64,000 nucleotides of DNA from Nanobdellota archaeon (GCA_038045425.1 JBBSYD010000032.1:36417-100416), one strand, 5' to 3'; shown: positions 29,018-52,423, counted from the stretch's first letter. Numbers and translations: made by a program. The notes: generated by a model from the letters alone, not told the origin.

Positions 29018-30802
29018 ATGGAAAATAAGGAAAGGAGGTATGAGGAACTCATTCAAGAAGCAAAGAACTTTCTCAAATCCAATAGAAAGCATATAGGAGA
29101 ATCAATTCGTACTGGAGAAAGAGTAGTAGTAATCAAGTTCACAACTATCTCAGAATACTCCCCAGATTTAGCAGAAGCAATACTAGAAACCCCAGAACCA
29201 GTAATAATTCTTCTTGAACAAGCAATGGACGAACTTGGATTCATCAAAGACCTAAGAGTAAGATTCTCAGAACTTCCAAAAACTGCTAAAACTAAAGTCA
29301 GAGAAATAAGAGCAAAACATCTTGACCAATTGATAGAGGTAGAAGGAATTGTTCGTCAGATATCTGAAGTTAGACCACAAGTAATTAATGCTAGGTTTGA
29401 GTGCCCAACTTGTGGAGCAATTCTTTCAGTTCGCCAAAGGGATAGAAAATTCGTAAAACCTTCTAAATGTAGTTGTGGTTGTAAATATGATTTTAAATTA
29501 CTATCGAAAGAAATGGTAGATACTCAATATATTGTAGTTGAAGAATCGCCAGATTTGTTAGAATCTGAAAAACAATCTACTGAAATTAATGTTTTACTAA
29601 AAGAGGATTTGGTAGACCCAAAAATGCAGAAATATATAATTCCTGGTAACAAAATTAAAATAATAGGGATAATAAAAGATATTCAGACTCCATTAAAAGT
29701 TGGTTCGAAAACAATCTCCAAAAAGAAGTTTATGATAGAGGCAAATAATATTTTTTCTCTGGAAGAAACGTTTGAATGTCTTCCTCTCAGTGAAGAAGAT
29801 ACTAAGGAAATAAAAGAATTATCCACTGATCCTAACTTATTCAAAAAGCTTGTCGAAAGTATATCTCCCAGCGTATATGGAAAAGAAGAAATAAAAGAAA
29901 CTATTCTTTTGCAGTTATTCGGAGGTGTTGAAAATAAAAAATCTGGTTTAGAATTAGTAAGGGGTGAAATTAATGTTTTACTTGCTGGAGCTTCGGGAGT
30001 TGCAAAAACAACAATTCTTAAATTTGCTTCTTCAATAGCTCCTAAAGGGAAATATTTTCAATGTAGAAGATCTAATGGAAACATTTCTGCAAAAACGATA
30101 AAATATTTTGGTGAATCAAGTTTAGAACCAGGAATAATTGTTCTTTCAAATAATGGAATACTTTGTTTGGATGAAATAGAGGATATTAGTAAGAAGGATC
30201 AAGAATCAATTTATAATATACTGAAGGATCAATCTGTTGAGATACCTAAGGTAGGAACTAAAATTGATTTAAAAATAAATATTGGATTACTTGTAGCAAT
30301 AAGCCCGAAAAAAAGATTTTATAACTGCGTGCCATTTACGGATCAAATTAATATTTCTAAAGATTTACTAAATATGTTTGATATAGTTTTTATAATCCAT
30401 GATGAACCTAATGAACATAATGATGGAGAAATTGCATCTCGTGTTCTTCAAGAGCATAAACAAGAAGTAAATGCTGAGTCTATACCTCAAAAACTATTAA
30501 GAAAATATATATTTTATGCTAGACAAAAGATTAAACCTGTACGAACGGACATTGCAATTAAAGAAATTACCAAATTTTATTCTGAATTAAGACAGAGTAA
30601 CTCTAAATTTTCAGATGTGTATATTAATGTTAGAAATCCAGAGAGTATAATGAGATTAGCTGAGGCACACGCAAGAATGCGACTTTCCAATCAGGTAGAT
30701 TTAGTTGACGCCAGAAAAGCAATAGAATTGTTTACCGCATCTTTAAAAAGTCAAGGTGGGTTAGATCCTGATTCTGCGCTTGAAAAATATCCTGAAAATT
30801 AA
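29018..30802 (+). CDS. mcm: MCM-like AAA+ replicative helicase homolog (divergent, 594 aa)
   Basis: N-terminal C4 zinc finger (CPTCG...CSCGC) and OB region. Walker A GASGVAKTT, Walker B CLDEIED. NMFDIVFII sits where MCM has SRFDLIF, so the arginine-finger R is absent. Confidence 0.65.
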   Translation: MENKERRYEELIQEAKNFLKSNRKHIGESIRTGERVVVIKFTTISEYSPDLAEAILETPEPVIILLEQAMDELGFIKDLRVRFSELPKTAKTKVREIRAKHLDQLIEVEGIVRQISEVRPQVINARFECPTCGAILSVRQRDRKFVKPSKCSCGCKYDFKLLSKEMVDTQYIVVEESPDLLESEKQSTEINVLLKEDLVDPKMQKYIIPGNKIKIIGIIKDIQTPLKVGSKTISKKKFMIEANNIFSLEETFECLPLSEEDTKEIKELSTDPNLFKKLVESISPSVYGKEEIKETILLQLFGGVENKKSGLELVRGEINVLLAGASGVAKTTILKFASSIAPKGKYFQCRRSNGNISAKTIKYFGESSLEPGIIVLSNNGILCLDEIEDISKKDQESIYNILKDQSVEIPKVGTKIDLKINIGLLVAISPKKRFYNCVPFTDQINISKDLLNMFDIVFIIHDEPNEHNDGEIASRVLQEHKQEVNAESIPQKLLRKYIFYARQKIKPVRTDIAIKEITKFYSELRQSNSKFSDVYINVRNPESIMRLAEAHARMRLSNQVDLVDARKAIELFTASLKSQGGLDPDSALEKYPEN

Positions 30803-32208
30803 AATCTTCGTCCGCCGCCTCTAGAACCACCAAAGCTTCTGTTTCCACCAAAACTTCTGCCTCTTGATGAACTTTCTCCACCTCTACTTGAATATCCTCT
30901 GCCTCCACCTCTGCTATCTCTACCGAAACTTTTTCCTCCTGAACTTCCACCTGAACGTCTTTCTCCTCCGCCATATCCTCCGCTTCGAGGTCTGTCGCCT
31001 CCGAATCTTCTTCCTCCTGAACTTGGACGGCCGAATCTTCTCCCATATCCTCCATGCCCGCTGGATTCTTGATCGTCTCTTCTAAAATTAACAAATATCT
31101 TCTCCATGTCTGTTGGCATCTCTACTTTATCGATTTTTATTTCTGGGTCTCTTAGAACATCTCTGAAATTATCATAGTCTCTTACTGAAACGATGTTAAT
31201 AGCAATTCCATCTTCTCCTGCTCTTGCAGTTCTTCCTATTCTGTGAATGTAATCTTTACTGGATGAAGGTAAGTCATAATTGTATACGTGAGAGACGTTT
31301 TTAATGTCTAATCCTCTGGCTGCAACATCGGTACAAACTAAAACTGAGATTCTTTCTGCTTTGAATTTTTCCATAACATAGTTTCTCTTTGATTGACTTA
31401 ACCCGCCGTGAATTGGAATAGCATCAATTCCTTGTTTTTGTAAATTATTTGCTACAAAGTCCGTATTTCTTTGGGTGTTACAGAAAATCATAATCAATCC
31501 GGGATGTTCTTTCTTTAATAGATGAACTAAAAGAGAAAATTTCTCATCTTGAGGAACATCGTAATAGACTTGCTTTAATTTAGTAGGATCTACATATTGC
31601 TCGATTGCTATATATGTTGGAGAGTTCATATATTTCTTTACAAGATGTTCAATGTCTGGAGAAATTGTTGCAGAGAATAACATTGTTTGTCTTTGTTCTG
31701 GACATAATTTGATAATTTTTGTTACGTCATATATGAATCCCATATCGAGCATTCTGTCTGCTTCATCGAGAACAAGAGTTTTTACATGTCTTAAATCTAA
31801 AGTTCTTCTTTCTAGATGGTCAAGAATTCTTCCAGGAGTGCCAACAACTATGTCTGCATCCTGTAGATCATTAATTTGAGGATTTATTCCTGCTCCACCA
31901 TAAATTGCAACTACAAATAATTTTTTATGCTTTGCGAACTTGTGAATTGAATCTGCTACCTGTTCTGCTAATTCTCTTGTTGGGGTGAGAACAAGTGCTT
32001 GAATTCCTTTTCCTCTTTCGGCTTTATCAATTATACTTGCTCCGAATGCTAATGTCTTTCCAGAACCTGTTGCTGAACCTGCAATTATGTCTTTACCCTG
32101 CATCGCTAGTGGAATTGCTTTCTCTTGAATTTCTCGTGGGCCTTCAAAACCTTGATTTTTCAAAGTCAGAGAGAGCTCATCGCTTAGTCCTAATTTCTTA
32201 AATACCAT
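30799..32208 (-). CDS. DEAD-box ATP-dependent RNA helicase with C-terminal RG/G-rich tail
   Basis: Q motif (EIQEKAIP), AGSATGSGKT, DEAD, SAT, HRIGRTAR. C-terminal roughly 90 aa are Gly/Arg-rich. Confidence 0.85.
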   Translation of the reverse strand: MVFKKLGLSDELSLTLKNQGFEGPREIQEKAIPLAMQGKDIIAGSATGSGKTLAFGASIIDKAERGKGIQALVLTPTRELAEQVADSIHKFAKHKKLFVVAIYGGAGINPQINDLQDADIVVGTPGRILDHLERRTLDLRHVKTLVLDEADRMLDMGFIYDVTKIIKLCPEQRQTMLFSATISPDIEHLVKKYMNSPTYIAIEQYVDPTKLKQVYYDVPQDEKFSLLVHLLKKEHPGLIMIFCNTQRNTDFVANNLQKQGIDAIPIHGGLSQSKRNYVMEKFKAERISVLVCTDVAARGLDIKNVSHVYNYDLPSSSKDYIHRIGRTARAGEDGIAINIVSVRDYDNFRDVLRDPEIKIDKVEMPTDMEKIFVNFRRDDQESSGHGGYGRRFGRPSSGGRRFGGDRPRSGGYGGGERRSGGSSGGKSFGRDSRGGGRGYSSRGGESSSRGRSFGGNRSFGGSRGGGRRF

Positions 32209-32864: not shown

Positions 32865-32989
32865 ATAAACTTTTATTGAAACTGGCTTTGTCCGATAAGT
32901 AGGTTCTGTCCGAATAGTCAATAAAACTACCCTAGAGGACACAAGGGCGATTAAACCCTTATGAACCCGACTAGGCTACCCGAATATGA

Positions 32990-33193
32990 TTATTTTAGGC
33001 TCTGTAACAGATTTTTAAGATAAGTATATCTCTCAGAACGAGTATTCTTAATAGCTTCATATATACTTTTTGTGTAAGTCTTTCCTTCCAAATTATTATA
33101 GACATAAGTTTCTAATTTCTTCAATAATCTTATTTCTTTTTGTACACTTCTAGCTATTTTCATTATTTTCTTTTTAGCTTCCTTAGTCATCAT
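32990..33193 (-). CDS. small hypothetical protein (transposon cargo)
   Basis: 67-aa basic ORF. Confidence 0.3.
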   Translation of the reverse strand: MMTKEAKKKIMKIARSVQKEIRLLKKLETYVYNNLEGKTYTKSIYEAIKNTRSERYTYLKNLLQSLK

Positions 33194-33420
33194 ATAAAAT
33201 CAATTAGATTTAACTTTAAATTACCTTCCAACCTCTAGGAAGTGGTTAAATTAAAAAGTATATTTCTTACTCTAATAATGTTTATATAATTAGTATACTA
33301 ATTAACATAGGCAGTATGGTATGATGGGCGATATGCTTAATGCCCCCGAAAGGGATTCAACCGCCGAGGTTGCTGAAAGCTCAGACCCCATTAGAGCTGC
33401 CAAATTAGGATTTTTATAAT

Positions 33421-34965
33421 GTGGCAAGTTCAACATTAGGATTTAAGGTGGATGAAGAGAGATTAATAGTTTCTAACTTAAAAAAGTCATTTACTATTAT
33501 TTCAGAATATTCTAACCCAAAACAAAGAATTTTATCTAGACTGGAAATTAAAAAAGAAAGCAAAAAAGTTATTGTAAACTTCTACGCTACGGGCAAATGC
33601 TTGATTCAAGGTAGTGACGGAGAATTATTTGATTCCATTAAGAAGAGTATATTAGATGGTGGATTGGTCGAAATAAAAAATGAAAAACAACAAAAGTTTA
33701 TAGCAGAATTGAATGAAAATGATTTTTATAAAGAAAAAGAATTTATTGTTGGTTTTGACGAAGCAGGCATAGGAGAAACTATTGGTTCTGCAGTTTTCGC
33801 AGCAGTTATACTGCCTAGAGAAATTTTACATATATTTTCAGATTTAAGAAAAGATATTAAGTCTCTTTCTCCTTCTGAATTAAATTATTATTGTGAATTA
33901 ATAAAAAAGAAAGGCATTCGCTATGAGTATATAACTACTTCACCATATGAAGTCTGTAATTCAGGAATTACTAAAAATAGATTAATGGACAGAAAATATG
34001 TTGAATTAATAAGGAAGCTTGCACCGAATCTTAATAAAAATTATATTTTAATGTTAGATGATTATGGTGTAAGGGAAGATATAAGGGAATATTTGAAAAA
34101 CTTAGATAAACAAGGTATTACGTCTATATGCCGAGATAAACTAGACGAATATATAACTGCTTGTAAATTAGCTTCAATTATTGCAAGACATGTAAGATAT
34201 TCTGAAGTTCAAATGCTAGAGAAAAATAATCGTATTTTAATTGAAGGAAAAGAGATAAGTTTTGGAAAAGGAGGAAATGGAGAAGAAACCACTAACTGGC
34301 TTAAACAATTTAGGACTTTGTACCCGACACAAGACTTCCCAGATTTCATTAAAAAAGCATGGAGCAATGTGGTAGAAATAGAAAAGTCCATGCCTAGACA
34401 GGTAATTCCATTATCATTTACTTGCGATGGTTGTAAAAAGTCTTTAAAACGTATATTTGCATATCACACAAAAGATGAAGATAGCCTAAGATTCTATTGC
34501 TCTTTGTGTTATAAGCTATTAGAGAAAAACCTACTAAAAACAAGGGGGTTTCCATATATATTAGCTGATACAAATTCTCTAATAATCGGTACAATAAGCC
34601 ATGACCTTCGATGTTTAACATCTATTTTTGAAGGTTCGAAATTACTTATTCCCTATAAGATTATAGACGAAATCGATACAATAGGAAAAGGCAAGAAATT
34701 AGGAGCACATAAAGAATTGGAAAGATTGAAAGTTCTTGAAACAGAAGGAAAGATAAAACTTCATCATTGTGACTTTGAAGTCACCCACCCATTTGATGCA
34801 GATAAAAAGCTTTACGATTTAATAGCCAAAAATAATAGTTGTGCTCTTATTACTGCTGATAAAAATCTAGCTATTGCAGCTCAAACCAATGATTCTTTTG
34901 TTTTTCATCTTATAAATTATATCCCTGAATCTAAAATAGAATCTGATTCTACGAAATTGAATTAA
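33421..34965 (+). CDS. RNase HIII-like (TBP-like N-domain plus RNase H catalytic domain) fused to a zinc ribbon and a C-terminal PIN domain
   Basis: VIVNFYATGKCLIQGSD resembles the RNase HIII N-domain (ITAYKSGKVLFQG). GFDEAGIGETIGSAVFAAVIL, DIKSLS and CKLASIIARHVR parallel the RNase HII/HIII motifs (DEVG/DEAG, DSK, AASIIAR). CDGCKK...CSLC forms a zinc ribbon. The C-terminal PIN has acidic residues in LADTNSLI, IIDEID and ITADKNLA. Confidence 0.6.
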   Translation: MASSTLGFKVDEERLIVSNLKKSFTIISEYSNPKQRILSRLEIKKESKKVIVNFYATGKCLIQGSDGELFDSIKKSILDGGLVEIKNEKQQKFIAELNENDFYKEKEFIVGFDEAGIGETIGSAVFAAVILPREILHIFSDLRKDIKSLSPSELNYYCELIKKKGIRYEYITTSPYEVCNSGITKNRLMDRKYVELIRKLAPNLNKNYILMLDDYGVREDIREYLKNLDKQGITSICRDKLDEYITACKLASIIARHVRYSEVQMLEKNNRILIEGKEISFGKGGNGEETTNWLKQFRTLYPTQDFPDFIKKAWSNVVEIEKSMPRQVIPLSFTCDGCKKSLKRIFAYHTKDEDSLRFYCSLCYKLLEKNLLKTRGFPYILADTNSLIIGTISHDLRCLTSIFEGSKLLIPYKIIDEIDTIGKGKKLGAHKELERLKVLETEGKIKLHHCDFEVTHPFDADKKLYDLIAKNNSCALITADKNLAIAAQTNDSFVFHLINYIPESKIESDSTKLN

Positions 34966-34967
34966 TG

Positions 34968-37631
34968 TTATAAATTTGAGCTATAAGGTAAAGATTTTAT
35001 ATAATTCTCCATAAATTCCCAATCTGGATTACCTTTTTTGTCTTTTGGTAGTTTAATCTTCATTTTTTTCAGTTGAGAATTAACTATTGCTCTGCCATAG
35101 GAGAATTTATCTTTCATTTCAAAGTTGAATATTGTAATTAGGAACATAGCCACATCTTTTGTAATCTTATTGTCTTTTGTTCTTATAATATTAATCTTAT
35201 TTCCTGTGAAAAATGGTTCTTCTTGGTAAAATGCTCTAACTCCCTCTGCTCCGATTGTTATGCAATCCCCAATTTCAGGTATTTCCTCATCATGTAAAAT
35301 CTTACCAGCATAACCATTATTAAATGCACTACGAGTAATGTAATTAACTCCTCCCATAGAAAACTCTACGTTTACTTTATGAACAGGTGTTCCCAAAGTA
35401 ACATCAAAAATATCATTTACATTAAACTCTTTCCAGTTGTCGGTATTTATCTTTTTGTTTTCGTTCTTTTCAGAATAAATCTTATTCTCATTCAGAATCT
35501 CCATAAAAGTTAATTCGTCAATATTTTTGTCTAAGATATCAAGTTTTAATTTTATCTTGAATATAATGTAGTCTTTTATACTCTTTGTAAAAAGATTAGA
35601 TTCAAGATATGTATAATCTGTCTTGCTGTGTGCCTGAATAATCCACTCATCTCTTTGATTTATTTTAGTTTTAACGAGATGAAAACCATCACTAAATTTA
35701 TCTGGATTATTTAATTCCTCTAAAAGTTTCTTCCTTATATTTGCCCATTTATCCAAGGCGTCAGTTCTACCTCTATTTTTAGATAAAACCAAACCATCAT
35801 CTTCTAAATTATAAAAGACTATTTCTTTATTATTGTGCGGTTTATTTGTTTCAAAAACAGCTATTGCAGTGTGAGTTGTGGCGTTTGGTCTAAACAAGTC
35901 TTTTGGCATATTAATAACACATTTTAAGGTATGCTTTGATAAAATTCTCTCTCTGGTGTCCTCGTCTTGCATATAAGTTGAAAGAGGAGCAATAATCACA
36001 CCAAACCTACTAACTTTGTCTAATAAATTTTCTAAGAATTGGATTTCTTTTTTAGTTGGATTATCTTTATTATCTTCTCCCCCATAAGGCGGATTTATGA
36101 AACCTATTGTCGGAGATATTCCATCTTTTTTAAGATTACCTAAGATTTCATTTGCTTCTTTTGAAAATGAATCTACGTTGAATATCATGGATTTACCATC
36201 TCCTCTAAAAAGCATATTAGATATTGAAAGAGCATACATGGTAGAGCTTTTCTCAAATCCGATTAACTGGTGTTGTTTTATATTTTTAATTAATTCCGCT
36301 TTGTTTCTTATGTTTGATTGATTAATTTCTAAGATTATTTTATTCATAGCAGATATTAAAAATGCTCCAGTTCCACAGCACGTATCAAGTATTACATCAT
36401 TATTCTTTATTTCCACTAGTTCTGTAAATAGTTTAGTTATATGACTTGGTGTTAAAACTATTCCATTTTTCACATTGCTTATTCCTGCATATCTCAAAAA
36501 TTCTTCATAAAATTTACCTAAGATATCATAATTTGTTTCTTTAGAGAATAAGGGAATAACATTTTTATCCAATTCTTCTAAAATTTCTTTTAAGATGTCT
36601 GTATTGTTTAGGTCTTGGTCTGTCTTGATAAAGGATAGTTCATTTGTTAAAACTTCTATTTTGTCCTTTGGTATCTTCTCATCTTTTAATATTTGAGTTA
36701 TTGTAGTTGGAATATTATTTATTATAGTCTTAGGATTCCAACCAATATATCCATCTTTAAAGTCGTTCTTATCTCCTCTGGTAAATAAACAAATCATTAA
36801 ACCGCTAAGTAAAACAGGTCTTTTTTGAGAATCTAAAGAACGAAGTTTATTGTTTATCTTCTTTGAAGATTCAGATACTTCTCTAATCAATCTTTCCATA
36901 TCTACATTTTCAAAAAATGAGAGGTATTCTTCTTCGTTCAATATTTCTTTAGTTTCTATATCTTTTATCTCGTTCTTATTTATAATAAAAGTAGAAATAA
37001 GATGGCTATACAAATCAAGGATATTACCAGATACGGCTATCCCAACAATCTTCCAATTCTTCAAATACTTTCTAGTTGTTTCAGGTAAGCTACTAACATA
37101 AGTATCTGTAAAGAAAGACAGATAATGTTTTATTCCATCTATTGCATAATTTTCAGGGTCGTTTCCTTCTTTAGACTGATGTTGCTTAATTGTATCTTTA
37201 TTTTCAAGCAAAATTATTAATTTGTTTGCTTCATTGATATATAACAAATCTGGCTCTCCACGATTTCCAGTTTTTCTTTTACTTGCTTTATCTAAAATAG
37301 ATTGAATGACTTTATTATCTGTTTTTTTAATATCCCAAGAGTTCTTATATTTTTTATTATCTTTTATAAAATTATATAAAAATATATCTTTCTTCGCTTC
37401 ATTTTTTCTTTCGTTACTCATGTCTTTTCCTCCAAGAATTTCTCTATAAGCTTTTCCACTTTGTCCGATTTGTTTATTGAGTTTTCTTCGCAGAAGTCGT
37501 TGAATCTTTTGAGAGTTTCTGGAGCTAGAGTTACACTTAAATGCCCCTTTTTCACCTCTCCTCTCCTCATAGCTTAATGATAAGTTATTACTTTTTATAT
37601 CTTGCGTATCCATATTATTAATGTTACTCAT
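34968..37631 (-). CDS. Type IIG restriction-modification enzyme (single chain: PD-(D/E)xK endonuclease, gamma-class N6-adenine methyltransferase and target-recognition domain)
   Basis: N-terminal GEPDLLYI...LIILLENKD is a PD-ExK motif. VLDTCCGTGAFLISA is MTase motif I and GFINPPYGG is motif IV (NPPY). The C-terminal roughly 230 aa are HsdS-like TRD. Size and domain order resemble MmeI. Confidence 0.7.
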   Translation of the reverse strand: MSNINNMDTQDIKSNNLSLSYEERRGEKGAFKCNSSSRNSQKIQRLLRRKLNKQIGQSGKAYREILGGKDMSNERKNEAKKDIFLYNFIKDNKKYKNSWDIKKTDNKVIQSILDKASKRKTGNRGEPDLLYINEANKLIILLENKDTIKQHQSKEGNDPENYAIDGIKHYLSFFTDTYVSSLPETTRKYLKNWKIVGIAVSGNILDLYSHLISTFIINKNEIKDIETKEILNEEEYLSFFENVDMERLIREVSESSKKINNKLRSLDSQKRPVLLSGLMICLFTRGDKNDFKDGYIGWNPKTIINNIPTTITQILKDEKIPKDKIEVLTNELSFIKTDQDLNNTDILKEILEELDKNVIPLFSKETNYDILGKFYEEFLRYAGISNVKNGIVLTPSHITKLFTELVEIKNNDVILDTCCGTGAFLISAMNKIILEINQSNIRNKAELIKNIKQHQLIGFEKSSTMYALSISNMLFRGDGKSMIFNVDSFSKEANEILGNLKKDGISPTIGFINPPYGGEDNKDNPTKKEIQFLENLLDKVSRFGVIIAPLSTYMQDEDTRERILSKHTLKCVINMPKDLFRPNATTHTAIAVFETNKPHNNKEIVFYNLEDDGLVLSKNRGRTDALDKWANIRKKLLEELNNPDKFSDGFHLVKTKINQRDEWIIQAHSKTDYTYLESNLFTKSIKDYIIFKIKLKLDILDKNIDELTFMEILNENKIYSEKNENKKINTDNWKEFNVNDIFDVTLGTPVHKVNVEFSMGGVNYITRSAFNNGYAGKILHDEEIPEIGDCITIGAEGVRAFYQEEPFFTGNKINIIRTKDNKITKDVAMFLITIFNFEMKDKFSYGRAIVNSQLKKMKIKLPKDKKGNPDWEFMENYIKSLPYSSNL

Positions 37632-37654
37632 GTTATTTATAGTATTAATATTAT

Positions 37655-38887
37655 TTATATCTTTGCTTCCATCTCAACAATAAAGTCAGGTTTAATTCCT
37701 CTACAAAACATTTCCATAATTACACAGCAGATATTATGGCAAATTACTTTACATAAAACCTCATTTACTTGAGCGTTCCATTTCTTAGAACGAACAGAAT
37801 CGCCAAACTTAGATTTTATCATATACACCGAGGTCTCCGCGTTTGACCTCTGGTGATATGATTGTAAAAATTCCTCATTGTGTAAAGCAAAATAATGATA
37901 AAGTCTTTTCCAGATTCCACCTTTTCGACTTGGAGTAGAATTTATCTTAAATGGAATAAATGCCTTAGTTCCACTATTTTCTATTAACTCTAAATTATCC
38001 CTTGATAAGTAGGCTTTATCCGCACTTAATTCTTGCATATCAAAGAACTCTTTAGCTGTTTGATATAATTGTTTAAGCTGTGGGCAGTCATTATCAAATT
38101 CAGAAGTTATCTTAACGCTGGTAATTCCATTTGTAATTGTTCCAGTAATGAAATGACATTTAACCCATTTTCTTGAACTTATGGCTTTTCCATGCTTGAA
38201 TGAATACCATCTTTGAAAATTAGAAGTTCCAAATCCCGTGCTGTCTATGGCAAATTTCCTATCAATCTCTTTTAGAGGCAAGGCAGTGATTGTTACTAAT
38301 TGGCTAAGTAAATCGGTTAATTCTTCTTTATTGAAATAATCTGACATAGAACTTCTTGGTGTGATACTTTCTATGAAGTTACTTGATTTTGCCTGTTCCA
38401 TATCTGACGTGAATCTTCTACTTGAAAAAGTGGAATAAACTTTGAAAATCATAGAATAAATAGTATCTCTCAAAGAATTTTTAGGTTTACCAAAAGTATA
38501 AGGTCTCTCTTGTATTTTGCTTGTTAAGTCTGCTAGGAGCTTCATAAACAACTCTTTCTCTTTCGTTTGAGCTAGATTATAGTTATGCCAATCTTGAGCG
38601 TAGGTGACCTTCTTAGTAGCGGTTATAGTCACATTACCTTGCTTGTCTACTTCGTGAGTTACTATAAACTCAACTGCCCAAATATGTTTACACTTACATC
38701 CTCTCTCTTTATGGTCTTTGCAATTACATGAAGTATTATCTCCTCTGCTCTTAACAAAGTAAAATCCTGCTCCAGACTGGCTTGGAACTTTCCATCTACC
38801 TTTTTCATCTTGAACTATTCTTGAAGTCTGAGCTATTACTAAGCCTCTTTGTTTTCTTACTTCGATTGGATTATATTGTGTTTCCAT
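37655..38887 (-). CDS. DDE transposase (IS4/IS5-like DDE_Tnp_1) with N-terminal SWIM zinc finger
   Basis: CNCKDHKERGCKCKHIW is a SWIM finger (CxCx(n)CxH). The DDE candidates are AIDSTGF, LSADKAY and RSNAETSVYMIKSKFG. Confidence 0.7.
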   Translation of the reverse strand: METQYNPIEVRKQRGLVIAQTSRIVQDEKGRWKVPSQSGAGFYFVKSRGDNTSCNCKDHKERGCKCKHIWAVEFIVTHEVDKQGNVTITATKKVTYAQDWHNYNLAQTKEKELFMKLLADLTSKIQERPYTFGKPKNSLRDTIYSMIFKVYSTFSSRRFTSDMEQAKSSNFIESITPRSSMSDYFNKEELTDLLSQLVTITALPLKEIDRKFAIDSTGFGTSNFQRWYSFKHGKAISSRKWVKCHFITGTITNGITSVKITSEFDNDCPQLKQLYQTAKEFFDMQELSADKAYLSRDNLELIENSGTKAFIPFKINSTPSRKGGIWKRLYHYFALHNEEFLQSYHQRSNAETSVYMIKSKFGDSVRSKKWNAQVNEVLCKVICHNICCVIMEMFCRGIKPDFIVEMEAKI

Positions 38888-38999
38888 GTTATATTTAGAT
38901 ACCTAATCTATATAAATCTTTCGGTATCTAAAATCTTACTTGGAAGTAGATAAATTAGACACCTAAAAGTTTATAAATCGTAGATACCTAAAATAATTA

Positions 39000-39167
39000 A
39001 TGAAGTTGCAAAAGCAGGTGAGTCGAGTATACAAAGGAGAAGAATACGAGAAATTTTGGATAGTTATACCTTCTAAGCTTGTAAAACTACTTGAATGGAA
39101 GACTGGACAAGATTTAGAGGGCGATGTGAAAGATGGGAAGCTCATAGTTGAAAAGAAGAAAAAATAA
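39000..39167 (+). CDS. AbrB/MazE-like swapped-hairpin small protein (55 aa)
   Basis: VYKGEEYEKFWIVIPSKLVKLLEWKTGQDLEGDVKDGKLIVEK has an SpoVT/AbrB-like pattern. Below the ORF-track cutoff. Confidence 0.4.
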   Translation: MKLQKQVSRVYKGEEYEKFWIVIPSKLVKLLEWKTGQDLEGDVKDGKLIVEKKKK

Positions 39168-39257
39168 GGAGATAAAAATTTAGGTGATGAAAAATAAATA
39201 TTTATTCGGTTAATTCTTAATAAAAATATATTTAAACTGCTGTATCAATCAAATTAA

Positions 39258-39599
39258 ATGAAAGAAGTTGAATTAAGACAAATTATAAAAAATAGAATAA
39301 ATTTTAGAGAAGTAAATGCTAATGTAATGTATAATGGATTTGATATGTCTGGATATAATAATAGTGGTTTTTCTAATTTAGAGATATTAGCTAAGTTTCA
39401 AGATTTAATGAATTTAAATTGTGGAACTGAAAATAGGACTCCAAATCTTCACTTACCTATATTTTGGAAAGGTAGCGGACAGATTATCAAATTAGATAAT
39501 TCTGGAAAATTTGAAGTAATAGAAGAGCTTAATGGAGAAACAACGGAAGACATTATATTCAAAATACTTAAACTGCAAAATACTGCACTTCTTGATTAA
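39258..39599 (+). CDS. hypothetical protein; last gene inside the transposon
   Basis: 113-aa ORF ending 2 bp before the right subterminal repeat. Confidence 0.4.
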   Translation: MKEVELRQIIKNRINFREVNANVMYNGFDMSGYNNSGFSNLEILAKFQDLMNLNCGTENRTPNLHLPIFWKGSGQIIKLDNSGKFEVIEELNGETTEDIIFKILKLQNTALLD

Positions 39600-39720
39600 A
39601 TTTCTGTCCGATAAGTCTTACTTTTTAGCTACTATTCGGACAAAGCCATTGAAACTGCTAGATTTAAAAACCCTGAAAACAATAAGTAAATGTATAAATA
39701 ATTAGGTTTAACTTTTTATT

Positions 39721-45864: not shown

Positions 45865-45935
45865 GGCCCATTAGGCTAATGGTAGACCGGTTCGTTTACA
45901 CCGAACATGCGGAGGTCCGATTCCTCCATGGGCCA
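45865..45935 (+). tRNA. tRNA-Val (anticodon TAC)
   Basis: Acceptor ggcccat/atgggcc (perfect), anticodon arm gttcg-tttacac-cgaac, T-arm ggagg-tccgatt-cctcc, discriminator A. The D-stem is imperfect. Confidence 0.65.
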
Positions 45936-45938
45936 CTT

Positions 45939-46517
45939 TTATTTTTTATAATTGCCTGGAAATATAAAATAGGCTGCAGTTCCATCATTTTTTAGGAAAG
46001 GAACTTTATATCCTTCTGCGTCTCTTTCAACTCTATCCTTTAATGGGAAAGGGAATTCAAAAGGTCTCCTGGGTAAATTACTTTCTGCAAGAGAATCAAG
46101 ATTAAATATTTGACCTACTCCAGTTTTAATAGTTTTCATCCTGAATAAATCTCCTTGTTTTTCATATTTGAATTCTACAAACAAATGAGATTCTGGTGAA
46201 ATGTCTATACCTAACCAATAAACTTGCCCTCGCTTATCCGGTCTTTTTATATCCATAGATAATTCCATTCCAGAAACAATGCCTCGATCATAATCAACTA
46301 CCAAGCAAGTCTTATTTGTTAATATTGGTTGGGCATTTCTTTCTTCAGACTGTCTTTTTAGAAAATTATGAGTAAAGATCCATCTATGTTCAACATCGCT
46401 AAATAGAAGAATGTCTAAACGCGCTTCTCCCTGTGGAAGACTTATCTTGTATTCTCTTGGAATTTTTCTTCTCATGTTATTTTCAGAATTAGGCTTCTGA
46501 GGTTGCCATCGCCTCAA
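45939..46517 (-). CDS. hypothetical protein, sole ORF between tRNA-Val and its partial downstream duplicate
   Basis: 192-aa ORF with no recognisable integrase motifs. Confidence 0.45.
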   Translation of the reverse strand: MRRWQPQKPNSENNMRRKIPREYKISLPQGEARLDILLFSDVEHRWIFTHNFLKRQSEERNAQPILTNKTCLVVDYDRGIVSGMELSMDIKRPDKRGQVYWLGIDISPESHLFVEFKYEKQGDLFRMKTIKTGVGQIFNLDSLAESNLPRRPFEFPFPLKDRVERDAEGYKVPFLKNDGTAAYFIFPGNYKK

Positions 46518-46604
46518 AAATCTATAAATTAGTTCATTTTAAAACCTTTCGAATTTTATCCTCTTGTAGATTACAGAACAAGTATACCCTTTTAGTTAGA
46601 GTCA

Positions 46605-46655
46605 TTTACACCGAATGGTCGGGAGTTCGATTCCTCCATGGGCCACTTTTATTTT
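46605..46655 (+). repeat. att-like partial duplicate of the tRNA-Val(TAC) 3' half plus 3' flank
   Basis: tttacaccgaa and cgattcctccatgggccacttttatttt are identical to 45895..45905 and 45918..45945. The middle 12 nt differ. Confidence 0.65.
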
Positions 46656-48985: not shown

Positions 48986-50287
48986 ATGATGACTAAGTTC
49001 AAAGCGTTGGGATTATCGGATGGAATGATTGAGGCTATTCGGGGAGCTCATTTTACAGAGCCGAGCGAGATACAGGAGAAAACTATTCCTCTTGTTCTTT
49101 CTGGGAAAGATGTTATTGGTAAATCTGCTACTGGCTCGGGGAAAACTCTTGCATTTGGTGCTGGAATTATTGAGAAAGTGCAGAGATATCATGGAATTCA
49201 GGCATTGATATTAACTCCTACTAGAGAATTGGCTGAGCAGATTACTCAAACATTAAAAAAGTTTTCAGGATATAAGGGATTGAATATTGATGAGGTTTAT
49301 GGAGGAGTTTCCATGGGTCCACAAATATCTAAGTTGAGATATGCTGAAATTGTTGTGGGAACGCCAGGAAGAATTCTAGACCATCTGGAAAGAAGAACGC
49401 TGAGATTGAATCAAGTGAAGTATTTAGTATTAGATGAAGCAGATAGAATGTTAGACATGGGATTCATAAAAGATGTTGAAAAAATTATTCAAATGTGCCC
49501 TGTTGAAAGACAGACTTTACTTTTTTCTGCAACTATTTCTGATGATATTGAGCATATCTCTAAAAAGTATATGATTAATCCGGTTAAGATAACTGTTGGA
49601 GACCAGGTCGATCCTGCTCAGTTATATCAAAAGTATTATGATGTTCCTCAGGAAATGAAGTTTTCTCTTCTTGCTTATTTATTGAGATTGGAAAGAAAGG
49701 GAGTAGTAATGGTATTTTGTAATACCAGAAGAAATGTAGACCATGTGACTAGAGCGTTATATCAGAATGGAATTAATGCCCTTGCAATTCACGGAGGATT
49801 AAGCCAAAATAGAAGAAATGAAACTATGGAAGCATTTCATTCTAGAAAAGCATTGATTCTTGTTTGTACTGATGTGGCTGCAAGAGGATTGGATATAAAA
49901 GATGTTTCACATGTTTATAATTTTGATTTGCCGAATAGTGGGACAGATTATATTCACAGAATAGGAAGAACTGCAAGAGCGGGAAAGAATGGAATTGCAA
50001 TAAGTTTTGTAGGAAGTGGAGAACATGGGGAATTTAGAAATATTTCAAGAGATAAGAATTTAGAAATTGAAAAAGTTATGGTTCCTGAAAATATTCATGT
50101 TCTTCCTCATGTGATAAGTGCACCTTCAAGAGGAACAATGGGAAGAGGAAGAAGGGGAGGAGGAAGACCAGTGAGAGGGCATTATGGGGGAAATAGAAAC
50201 TTCCAAAGTGAAGCACAAAAGTATGGACGAGCGAAGAAAAGAACGGATGGGCCGCATAGACGTAAGAAGAATAAGAGAAGATATTGA
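48986..50287 (+). CDS. DEAD-box ATP-dependent RNA helicase with C-terminal RG-rich tail (paralog of 30799..32208)
   Basis: Q motif, GKSATGSGKT, DEAD, SAT, HRIGRTAR. Strong overall similarity to the other DEAD-box gene. Confidence 0.85.
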   Translation: MMTKFKALGLSDGMIEAIRGAHFTEPSEIQEKTIPLVLSGKDVIGKSATGSGKTLAFGAGIIEKVQRYHGIQALILTPTRELAEQITQTLKKFSGYKGLNIDEVYGGVSMGPQISKLRYAEIVVGTPGRILDHLERRTLRLNQVKYLVLDEADRMLDMGFIKDVEKIIQMCPVERQTLLFSATISDDIEHISKKYMINPVKITVGDQVDPAQLYQKYYDVPQEMKFSLLAYLLRLERKGVVMVFCNTRRNVDHVTRALYQNGINALAIHGGLSQNRRNETMEAFHSRKALILVCTDVAARGLDIKDVSHVYNFDLPNSGTDYIHRIGRTARAGKNGIAISFVGSGEHGEFRNISRDKNLEIEKVMVPENIHVLPHVISAPSRGTMGRGRRGGGRPVRGHYGGNRNFQSEAQKYGRAKKRTDGPHRRKKNKRRY

Positions 50288-51954: not shown

Positions 51955-52357
51955 TAAATAAACAATAGTTATAGGTTAATATATTTACCTCTTAAATCAT
52001 AGAAAATATGAACTGACCTGTTCGTAAATATTCTATCATTTTTTTCTATTGGGCTGAATTTGGTCTGAGCGTTTAACACTTTTGACCAAAACAAAATCGT
52101 GATTTATTGTGGCGTTTATACAAGGTACTTAAATAGTTAAGAGTAGTTTAAGATCGTGAGAATCGACCTATATAATCACAAAGAAAGATATCTAAATTGG
52201 AAGAATAATGTTAAATCTATAGAGAATGCAACAAAATAAAATGGTGGAGTGACGTCCTAAAGTGATATAAAATAATAAAGACCTACCTTTTGAATTCTCT
52301 ACCTTGCGATGGAAGTTTAAGTTAAAAAGCCCAATTTATAATTGAGGTTGTTCTTAT

Positions 52358-52423
52358 AAAGTGCTACAAAAAATGTATCACTTAGAAAGTAAAGTGCTAC
52401 AAAAAATGTATCACTTAGAAAGG
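52358..52423. repeat. tandem duplication, 2 x 33 bp (aaagtgctacaaaaaatgtatcacttagaaagt)
   Basis: Two adjacent near-identical units immediately upstream of the likely ATG (52433) of the AAA+ gene. Confidence 0.75.

Follow-up and report, generated by a model that had tools for sequence, protein, structure and literature searches.

A predicted single-chain restriction-modification enzyme of the BcgI/HaeIV lineage is cargo of an IS903-like transposon in a Nanobdellota archaeon

What kind of enzyme is encoded by the long minus-strand open reading frame (ORF) at 34968..37631 of a 64,000-nt stretch of Nanobdellota archaeon DNA (GCA_038045425.1 JBBSYD010000032.1:36417-100416, hereafter the window), and does its gene belong to a mobile element? 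The window is identical to ENA contig Hain_H43_01um_R1_63. An initial annotation had described the ORF as an 887-aa, MmeI-like Type IIG restriction-modification (RM) enzyme with its own target recognition domain (TRD), carried as transposon cargo. We consider it probable that the product is an 817-aa, BcgI-related RM enzyme of the HaeIV form, acting as a homodimer on a bipartite site, and that its gene is the mobile cargo of a transposon.

The ORF listing of the window contains an 887-aa ORF on the minus strand with exactly these coordinates. Its Pfam and PADLOC domain signals far exceed chance, so that the ORF is more than a chance reading frame. N6_Mtase (PF02384) matches with E=3e-27 and 96 bits, the PADLOC REase_MTase_IIG profiles match residues 83-695 with E=2e-51, and PADLOC Specificity_II matches residues 733-880 with E=7e-19, covering profile positions 7-153 of 341 only (residues in 887-aa numbering). 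Similarity to Type IIG and HsdM-like methyltransferases (MTases), on which the initial annotation had staked its reading, is therefore readily detected. In the same numbering, the motifs lie at 125-132 (GEPDLLYI), 141-146 (LLENKD), 416-424 (DTCCGTGAF) and 513-516 (NPPY). GEPDLLYI, LLENKD and NPPY had been quoted correctly, whereas the motif I string had been given as VLDTCCGTGAFL and actually reads VILDTCCGTGAFL. Residue numbers in the lines below follow the 817-aa product that starts at Met71 (offset 70), and conservation refers to an alignment of 70 homologues that are 54-83% identical.

34968..37421, minus strand: RM-S enzyme, preferred 817-aa model, with nuclease, gamma N6-adenine MTase and half-HsdS
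37194..37259, minus strand: PD-(D/E)XK motif GEPD...ENK, with P57-D58 and E73-N74-K75 at least 90% conserved in the 70 homologues
36360..36386, minus strand: MTase motif I, S-adenosylmethionine (AdoMet) binding, D346-TCC-G350-T-G352-A-F354, within the N6_Mtase match; D346, G350, G352 and F354 invariant
36084..36095, minus strand: MTase motif IV, catalytic NPPY, N443-Y446; N443, P444 and P445 invariant, Y446 at least 90% conserved
34971..35456, minus strand: specificity module, residues 656-817, corresponding to half an S subunit, with one TRD and the conserved tail GNPDWEFMENYIKSLPYSSNL

Motif I and NPPY are both kept across the 70 homologues upon careful alignment, and the MTase belongs to the gamma class because motif I comes before motif IV. 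The combination that had been proposed, a PD-ExK nuclease motif, a gamma-class N6-adenine MTase and a C-terminal HsdS-like domain in one chain, is thus conserved by alignment. An AlphaFold2 model built on the family alignment has a mean pLDDT of 83.9 and a pTM of 0.72, with high confidence in the N-terminal domain; there, D58 precedes strand 59-63 and E73 and K75 close strand 68-75, as expected of a PD-(D/E)XK core. The ORF is intact in every population variant examined. Judged by its sequence, the protein is a single-chain RM enzyme, Type IIG/IIC in the broad sense, with predicted activity.

The enzyme probably begins downstream of the ORF's first codon. Met71 (37421) is most likely the translation start, giving a product of 817 aa, and 887 aa is probably an over-extended length. 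We prefer this start because homologues, DNA conservation, the sequence around the ATG and the GenBank records agree on it. The family consensus (M-x3-RKNEAK...) begins at Met71 in the 70-sequence alignment, full-length homologues measure 811-830 aa, and 92% of the 887-aa query is covered. Among related loci (n=4), DNA similarity sets in at 37412-37432. A GGAGG box lies 7 nt 5' of the Met71 ATG, and that ATG overlaps, as ATGA, the stop codon of a 50-aa ORF in another frame (37418..37570). Separate GenBank entries exist for this ORF and for the 817-aa product (MEK6927332.1, 'N-6 DNA methylase', Nanoarchaeota archaeon); the versions of 887 and 884 aa are the output of other gene callers (ENA, Logan), and the gene-model correction matters in that these calls run across a small candidate regulator gene. 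Neither product, of 50 or of 817 aa, was retrieved from the contig index by exact look-up, but a cluster look-up did find both. The codon-usage log-odds per codon are 0.08 for the 70-codon extension and -0.08 for the frame of the 50-aa ORF, compared with an in-frame mean of 0.50 and an out-of-frame mean of -1.09. The first 70 codons of the 887-aa ORF are probably not enzyme sequence.

37422..37631, minus strand: 70-codon upstream extension, covered by no homologue and without a meaningful Pfam match; DNA conservation ends at ~37432
37418..37570, minus strand: 50-aa ORF resembling ribbon-helix-helix (RHH) proteins; its stop overlaps the RM start (ATGA), and NCBI lists it as a hypothetical protein

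The 50-aa ORF matches Pfam RHH_9 below threshold (E=0.024) and has a 38%-identical relative in locus L005 (3261-3371, minus strand), at the head of an unrelated N4/N6 MTase operon whose start it overlaps. Its product may be a candidate RM regulator, possibly an RHH-type RM controller; classical controller (C) proteins are helix-turn-helix, not RHH. Lying upstream of the RM gene and translationally coupled to it, the small gene may act as its regulator. As a separate observation on gene models, the related protein P0008 (annotated 683 aa; L008 and L009 5001-5075) is likewise N-terminally over-extended and overlaps the transposase stop. Its family start, MAVERKNEAK, is preceded by GGAAAGGAG and lies 24 codons downstream of the annotated start.

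We then placed the enzyme among its relatives, of which a database search found more than 1,400. The names that GenBank and JGI give to the enzyme and to relatives of it, 'N-6 DNA methylase' or 'type I restriction enzyme M protein', are automatic labels triggered by PF02384. The closest relatives, P0005 and P0008, are ~660-aa proteins from Woesearchaeota and Nanoarchaeia metagenome-assembled genomes and are 82-83% identical to the window enzyme over the RM part. Downstream of each lies a Methylase_S gene that overlaps it and encodes a 329-aa protein with two TRDs. The C-terminal ~160 residues of the window enzyme (656-817) align to each half of the S proteins of L005 and L008, with E-values of 1e-19 to 4e-26, and at DNA level the tail GNPDWEFMENYIKSLPYSSNL matches two parts of the L008 S gene, its central and its C-terminal conserved region. 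A separate S gene is absent from the element that carries the enzyme, and the enzyme itself holds one TRD and one conserved region. The claim that the enzyme has its own TRD therefore stands, in that its C-terminal specificity module contains one TRD and is homologous to half an S subunit. Because the split relatives carry the A+B layout of BcgI and the C-terminus matches both S halves, sequence comparison identifies the enzyme as an RM 'A' polypeptide fused to half of a 'B' specificity subunit, in what is probably a BcgI-related, Type IIB-like lineage of the HsdM type. BcgI A is ~637 aa and B ~341 aa, lengths that equal those of the best-matching PADLOC profiles.

The three primary forms of Type IIB enzymes are BcgI (A2B), AloI/TstI (one chain with two specificity domains) and HaeIV (one chain with one) (PMC4081073, PMC4027205). 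The BcgI protomer is A2B with B at its centre (PMC3592470), and HaeIV is a homodimer that presents two copies of one specificity domain to a symmetric site, GAY N5 RTC, cutting on either side of it (PMC4081073, PMC4027205). By its predicted architecture and this published description, the window enzyme has the HaeIV form, one chain with one TRD. Two chains would dimerise via their half-S modules and thereby regain the A2B arrangement of the split relatives. Such a dimer would read a symmetric bipartite site and methylate one adenine per half-site with AdoMet. On unmodified DNA it would recruit further protomers, as other Type IIB enzymes do, and then cut at set distances beyond the site, probably to either side. 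We infer the homodimer and the symmetric site from the HaeIV literature and from the homology of the module to one half of an S subunit with two TRDs.

The same comparisons bear on how specificity changes. The cores are 80-83% identical, and the window TRD is only 20-32% identical to other TRDs; the fused relative P0002 has a TRD that shares 67% identity with the TRD1 of a free-standing S subunit. As far as these alignments indicate, specificity in the BcgI-like lineage changes by whole-TRD exchange. The switchable specificities attributed to the enzyme in the initial annotation were thus right in spirit, but they would come about by swapping the whole TRD, in the way of Type I and Type IIB systems, and not by MmeI-style residue changes.

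Is the gene mobile? Comparing loci, we found a conserved 47-nt stretch beyond an AbrB-like gene, which led us to an inverted copy at 32884. Framed by these terminal inverted repeats and by a perfect target duplication of 9 bp, the interval 32884..39647 is a 6,764-bp IS5-family, IS903-like element, and the RM gene inside it is indeed transposon cargo, as had been proposed. The termini are IS903-like (GGCTTTGTCCGAWWAGT; full form GGCTTTGTCCGA(TA/AT)AGTAG), the left and right ends being alike at 18/20 positions, and each end holds two copies of a 12-nt unit, TGYCCGAWWAGT. The perfect 9-bp direct repeat ATTGAAACT flanks the element at 32875-32883 and 39648-39656.

32875..32883, no strand: left target-duplication copy ATTGAAACT; the same 9-mer lies just outside both termini
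32884..32918, plus strand: left terminus, repeat GGCTTTGTCCGATAAGTAG and a second, direct 12-nt unit TGTCCGAATAGT at 32907-32918; unit architecture as in sister elements
39605..39647, minus strand: right terminus, repeat GGCTTTGTCCGAATAGTAG (39647 to 39629, minus) and an inward inverted unit at 39605-39616; 47-nt homologous ends occur elsewhere
39648..39656, no strand: right target-duplication copy ATTGAAACT, matching the left copy

In IS903B, a member of the IS5 family, the termini read GGCTTTGTTGAATAAATC and the direct repeat measures 9 bp (PMC10569121), and because of these like features we regard the element as an IS903-like transposon with passenger genes. It is inserted between alaE and a DHH-family gene. 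Ends of 47 nt homologous to the right terminus are found in L011, L013, L014, L015 and L022. When 80 loci encoding transposase relatives (L011-L090) were scanned for termini, eight further complete elements of 2.7-6.9 kb were recovered, with like ends and perfect 9-bp duplications. Such perfect duplications were present in 9/12 candidate end pairs and in 0/252 shifted-offset controls, and the 12-nt unit had 109 occurrences across these loci, where shuffled sequence gave 13-30.

Solved structures put this reading of the enzyme in perspective. By sequence or family profile, the PDB returned Type I HsdM subunits only, and BsaXI, BpuSI and MmeI were not found in the family-profile search of PDB sequences. 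In the Foldseek ranking of PDB entries, HsdM came first, followed by BpuSI (3s1s, E=2e-12, 922 aligned columns) and then the Type IIB enzyme BsaXI (8w0p/8w2p, E=4e-11). Several points weigh against the BcgI-related, HaeIV-form dimer as transposon cargo. BsaXI is seen by fold alone, with a TM of ~0.3, a value that is low because the domains are arranged differently, and BpuSI, a single-TRD, monomeric enzyme with asymmetric sites, ranks slightly above it by fold. The activity, oligomeric state, recognition site and cleavage geometry of the enzyme are all predicted from sequence. No empty site was found among population contigs with identical AlaE or DHH proteins, all of which carry the element. 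The RHH assignment of the 50-aa ORF comes from one sub-threshold Pfam match and one distant relative, and a database of 5.8 billion proteins held only the identical sequence as a homologue.

The main rival is a monomeric Type IIG/IIS-like enzyme in the style of BpuSI or Eco57I, with a short continuous asymmetric site, a one-sided cut and no half-S dimer. We regard it as unlikely, even though the window enzyme has a single TRD, BpuSI is a strong full-length fold match and Type IIC enzymes mostly bind as monomers (PMC4081073). BpuSI is undetectable by sequence, whereas the TRD and tail are homologous to each S half of the split relatives, so that A-S and S-S surfaces would be inherited, and HaeIV provides a precedent for a one-TRD homodimer.

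Could the system be a decayed one, in which the nuclease is inactive and an orphan or epigenetic MTase, or the remnant of an addiction module, is left? The MTase names in the databases would fit, and cleavage itself is a prediction, but those names are the automatic PF02384 labels noted above. Conservation of P57-D58 and E73-N74-K75 is 90% or higher, the model of the N-terminal domain is of high confidence and the ORF is intact in all population variants, which together make a decayed system very unlikely.

An MmeI-family (Type IIL/IIG) enzyme, as originally proposed, would be a monomer with a continuous asymmetric 6-8 bp site, a one-sided cut ~20/18 nt downstream and modification of one strand only. 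The domain order is the same, and some homologues carry a precomputed match to MmeI_Mtase (PF20473); the window enzyme scores 16.7 bits on this model, where the cut-off is 27, and the much stronger match to the HsdM-type N6_Mtase model (96 bits) covers the same region. Pfam has separate models for the N-terminal, helical-spacer, TRD and C-terminal domains of MmeI, and no further MmeI-named model appeared in a Pfam scan at E<=0.1. With MmeI absent from the top 50 Foldseek PDB matches and from the sequence matches, and with a specificity domain homologous to HsdS/BcgI-B halves, we find the MmeI-like label highly improbable and do not retain it.

Equally improbable is that a simple insertion sequence (IS) of ~1.5 kb landed by chance beside a resident RM gene that is not cargo: RM proteins and transposases do diverge very unequally between loci (82% and 44% identity), and the transposase alone is not bracketed by inverted repeats and at first resembled a decayed IS, but the family-specific termini at 32884 and 39647 lie outside the RM gene and carry a perfect 9-bp duplication, the eight other elements with like ends and duplications enclose cargo of their own, and the RM stop is 2 bp from a convergent co-cargo gene, so that an end could not fit between them. 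Inverted repeats were looked for around the transposase alone, but nothing convincing turned up in the window, L001, L008 or L009, and the idea of a decayed or domesticated transposase was dropped once the true termini were found further out. We also rejected co-divergence of transposase and RM gene as a unit, given RM cores that are 82% and transposases that are 44% identical; because of this unequal divergence, cargo has evidently been exchanged between elements.

In the orientation of the transposase, the genes of the element run in the order 113-aa ORF, AbrB-like gene, transposase, RHH ORF, RM enzyme, convergent RNase HII-PIN gene and 67-aa ORF. Those outside the RM unit, and the control region that separates the AbrB-like gene from the transposase, are as follows.

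39258..39599, plus strand: 113-aa ORF, with a weak PRTase-CE match only and no relatives in other loci
39000..39167, plus strand: 55-aa SpoVT/AbrB (MazE-like) DNA-binding protein; PF04014 at 25.8 bits, above the 24.7 cut-off
38888..38999, no strand: divergent control region, BRE/TATA-like CGAAAGATTTATATAG within the inverted repeat AGATACC...GGTATCT, and further TAGGTATCTA copies
37655..38887, minus strand: 410-aa transposase with an N-terminal SWIM-type CxCxnCxH zinc finger and an IS5-type DDE domain; DDE_Tnp_1 E=7e-16
33421..34965, plus strand: 514-aa co-cargo protein with RNase HII-like and PIN domains and a weakly RnlA-like N-terminus
32990..33193, minus strand: 67-aa ORF without a Pfam match, called as a gene in ENA and Logan records

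The transposase scores 120 bits against NCBIfam IS5_2, below the cut-off of 140, and D215, D290 and E351 as well as the Y-x2-R-x3-E-x6-K signature (Y344, R347, K358) are invariant in the alignment; by sequence it is a divergent IS5-family member. The AbrB-like gene is divergent from it, and copies 82% and 62% identical occupy the same position in L011 and L083. The layout of the intervening control region, which looks like a promoter with a co-evolving operator, recurs with different repeat sequences in L008 and L011. A BRE/TATA-like box, CGAAAnnTTTATATAG, with a flanking inverted repeat is seen in the window (38888-39167), L011 (343-632) and L008 (3650-3780); the inverted repeat varies by locus, reading AGATACC/GGTATCT in the window and L011 and GGTACC/GGTACC in L008.

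On the other side of the RM gene, the 514-aa gene is convergent with it, their stop codons 2 bp apart. The protein matches Pfam RNase_HII (E=2e-14) and, both below their cut-offs, PIN_4 (E=6e-4) and RnlA_toxin (E=1e-3), RnlA being the RNase LS toxin. It had no PADLOC match and no relatives in the other elements, and it could be an uncharacterised toxin or defence gene.

The sister elements place this cargo in a wider setting. Across the complete elements, an MTase or RM system is present in 5/9 (the window, L011, L012, L013 and L055). Among 20 large genes that directly adjoin the transposase in other loci, picked by eye, 18 encode DNA MTases of different RM types, comprising BcgI-like IIG, Type I M and M-S fusions, a Type II double MTase and Type III Mod with Res. 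The elements come in two geometries. In one, the AbrB-like gene separates the [-> <- <-] end from the transposase, which is directed away from that end; in the other, the transposase stop abuts the [-> <- <-] end. The transposase is either in tandem with the cargo or divergent from it, and the hosts of the family are mainly DPANN and other archaea. No description of this archaeal SWIM-DDE transposon family was found in the searchable literature, which is not proof that it is undescribed.

As a tentative extension, the SWIM-DDE family may be a dedicated vehicle for interchangeable Type I, IIB/IIG, II and III MTase or RM cargo, sited immediately beside the transposase, in DPANN and other archaea, with AbrB-like and RHH regulators coordinating transposase and RM expression and the cargo stabilising the element, in the manner of an addiction module, within genomes of very small size. 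Going by established RM biology, the selfish, addictive properties of an RM system would help to keep the element in the genome. As for where these elements insert, the insertions of all nine complete elements are intergenic, mostly with a TTTAWA/TTTATAAA box ~10-20 nt outside the duplication on one side. The box could reflect a promoter-region target preference, or simply AT-rich intergenic DNA.

Elsewhere in the window, a 54-nt direct repeat (85% identical) at 45892-45945 and 46602-46655 contains a tRNA 3'-end-like sequence, TTCGATTCCTCCATGGGCCAC, and tRNA-Val (45865-45936) overlaps the first copy; the repeat may represent an attachment site duplicated by a small integrated element of ~0.7 kb. 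At 52357-52422, the 33-nt unit TAAAGTGCTACAAAAAATGTATCACTTAGAAAG is perfectly tandem-duplicated. Direct-repeat pairs of 52-56 nt (n=3), 89-96% identical and 0.5-3.5 kb apart, lie at 50236-50291/53724-53779, 20926-20977/21416-21467 and 16790-16842/19344-19396. Finally, a 57-nt inverted match (89%) links 31199-31255, in a DEAD-box helicase gene (30799-32208), to 49945-50001, indicating a paralogous helicase gene ~18.7 kb away.

Taken by itself, the enzyme is an ordinary, intact member of a large, largely uncharacterised family, already in GenBank under a generic name. It sits between Type I and Type II systems. Self-contained RM-S enzymes with one TRD are convenient scaffolds for specificity engineering by TRD swap, and Type IIB enzymes are already used in 2b-RAD-type methods. 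The context is more instructive than the enzyme: a complete RM system is the cargo of an autonomous transposon in a groundwater DPANN archaeon, and sister elements carry other RM types, giving direct evidence of how defence genes move among ultra-small archaea.

How do the element and its enzyme compare with known systems? The element resembles IS903B in its DDE_Tnp_1 transposase, its termini starting GGCTTTGT and its 9-bp target duplication. Unlike IS903, its family spans 2.7-6.9 kb with passengers and has multiple subterminal 12-nt units, a SWIM zinc finger and, in one sub-group, a divergent AbrB-like gene. A transposon-like unit in Neisseria, in which a Type IIG RM gene and an S homologue lie between 26-bp inverted repeats with an 8-bp duplication, was reported by Furuta et al. 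2010 (PMC2853133); that unit lacks a transposase, whereas the window element encodes its own.

Among RM enzymes, the MmeI family shares with the window enzyme the generic order of nuclease, gamma MTase and C-terminal specificity domain in a single chain. The two differ in MTase subfamily and TRD type, and specificity would change by TRD swap in the window enzyme and by contact-residue substitution in MmeI. Type I HsdM and HsdS (EcoKI M2S 2y7c; 5ybb; 2okc) are closer: they give the best matches to the MTase core by both sequence and fold, the specificity domain belongs to the HsdS family, and a stoichiometry like that of Type I M2S is predicted for the window enzyme. The Type I translocase/helicase HsdR, however, is missing, as there is no ResIII or Helicase_C in the protein and no HsdR-sized ORF within 32884-39647. 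A short N-terminal PD-(D/E)XK domain is fused to M instead, which should place the cuts at fixed positions close to the site.

BcgI and BsaXI (PDB 8W0P/8W2P) share with the window lineage an N-terminal nuclease, an HsdM-like MTase and an HsdS-like specificity module. Here, the S function is fused and halved, and BsaXI is not matched by sequence. Two-chain Type IIB enzymes usually recognise asymmetric bipartite sites, whereas a symmetric site is predicted for the window enzyme. The closest likeness, drawn from the published description, is to HaeIV of Haemophilus aegyptius, which likewise combines a nuclease, a gamma MTase and a single specificity domain in one chain. Unlike HaeIV, the window enzyme belongs to a DPANN archaeon and its gene resides on a transposon, and its dimer, symmetric site and two-sided cuts are predicted by homology.

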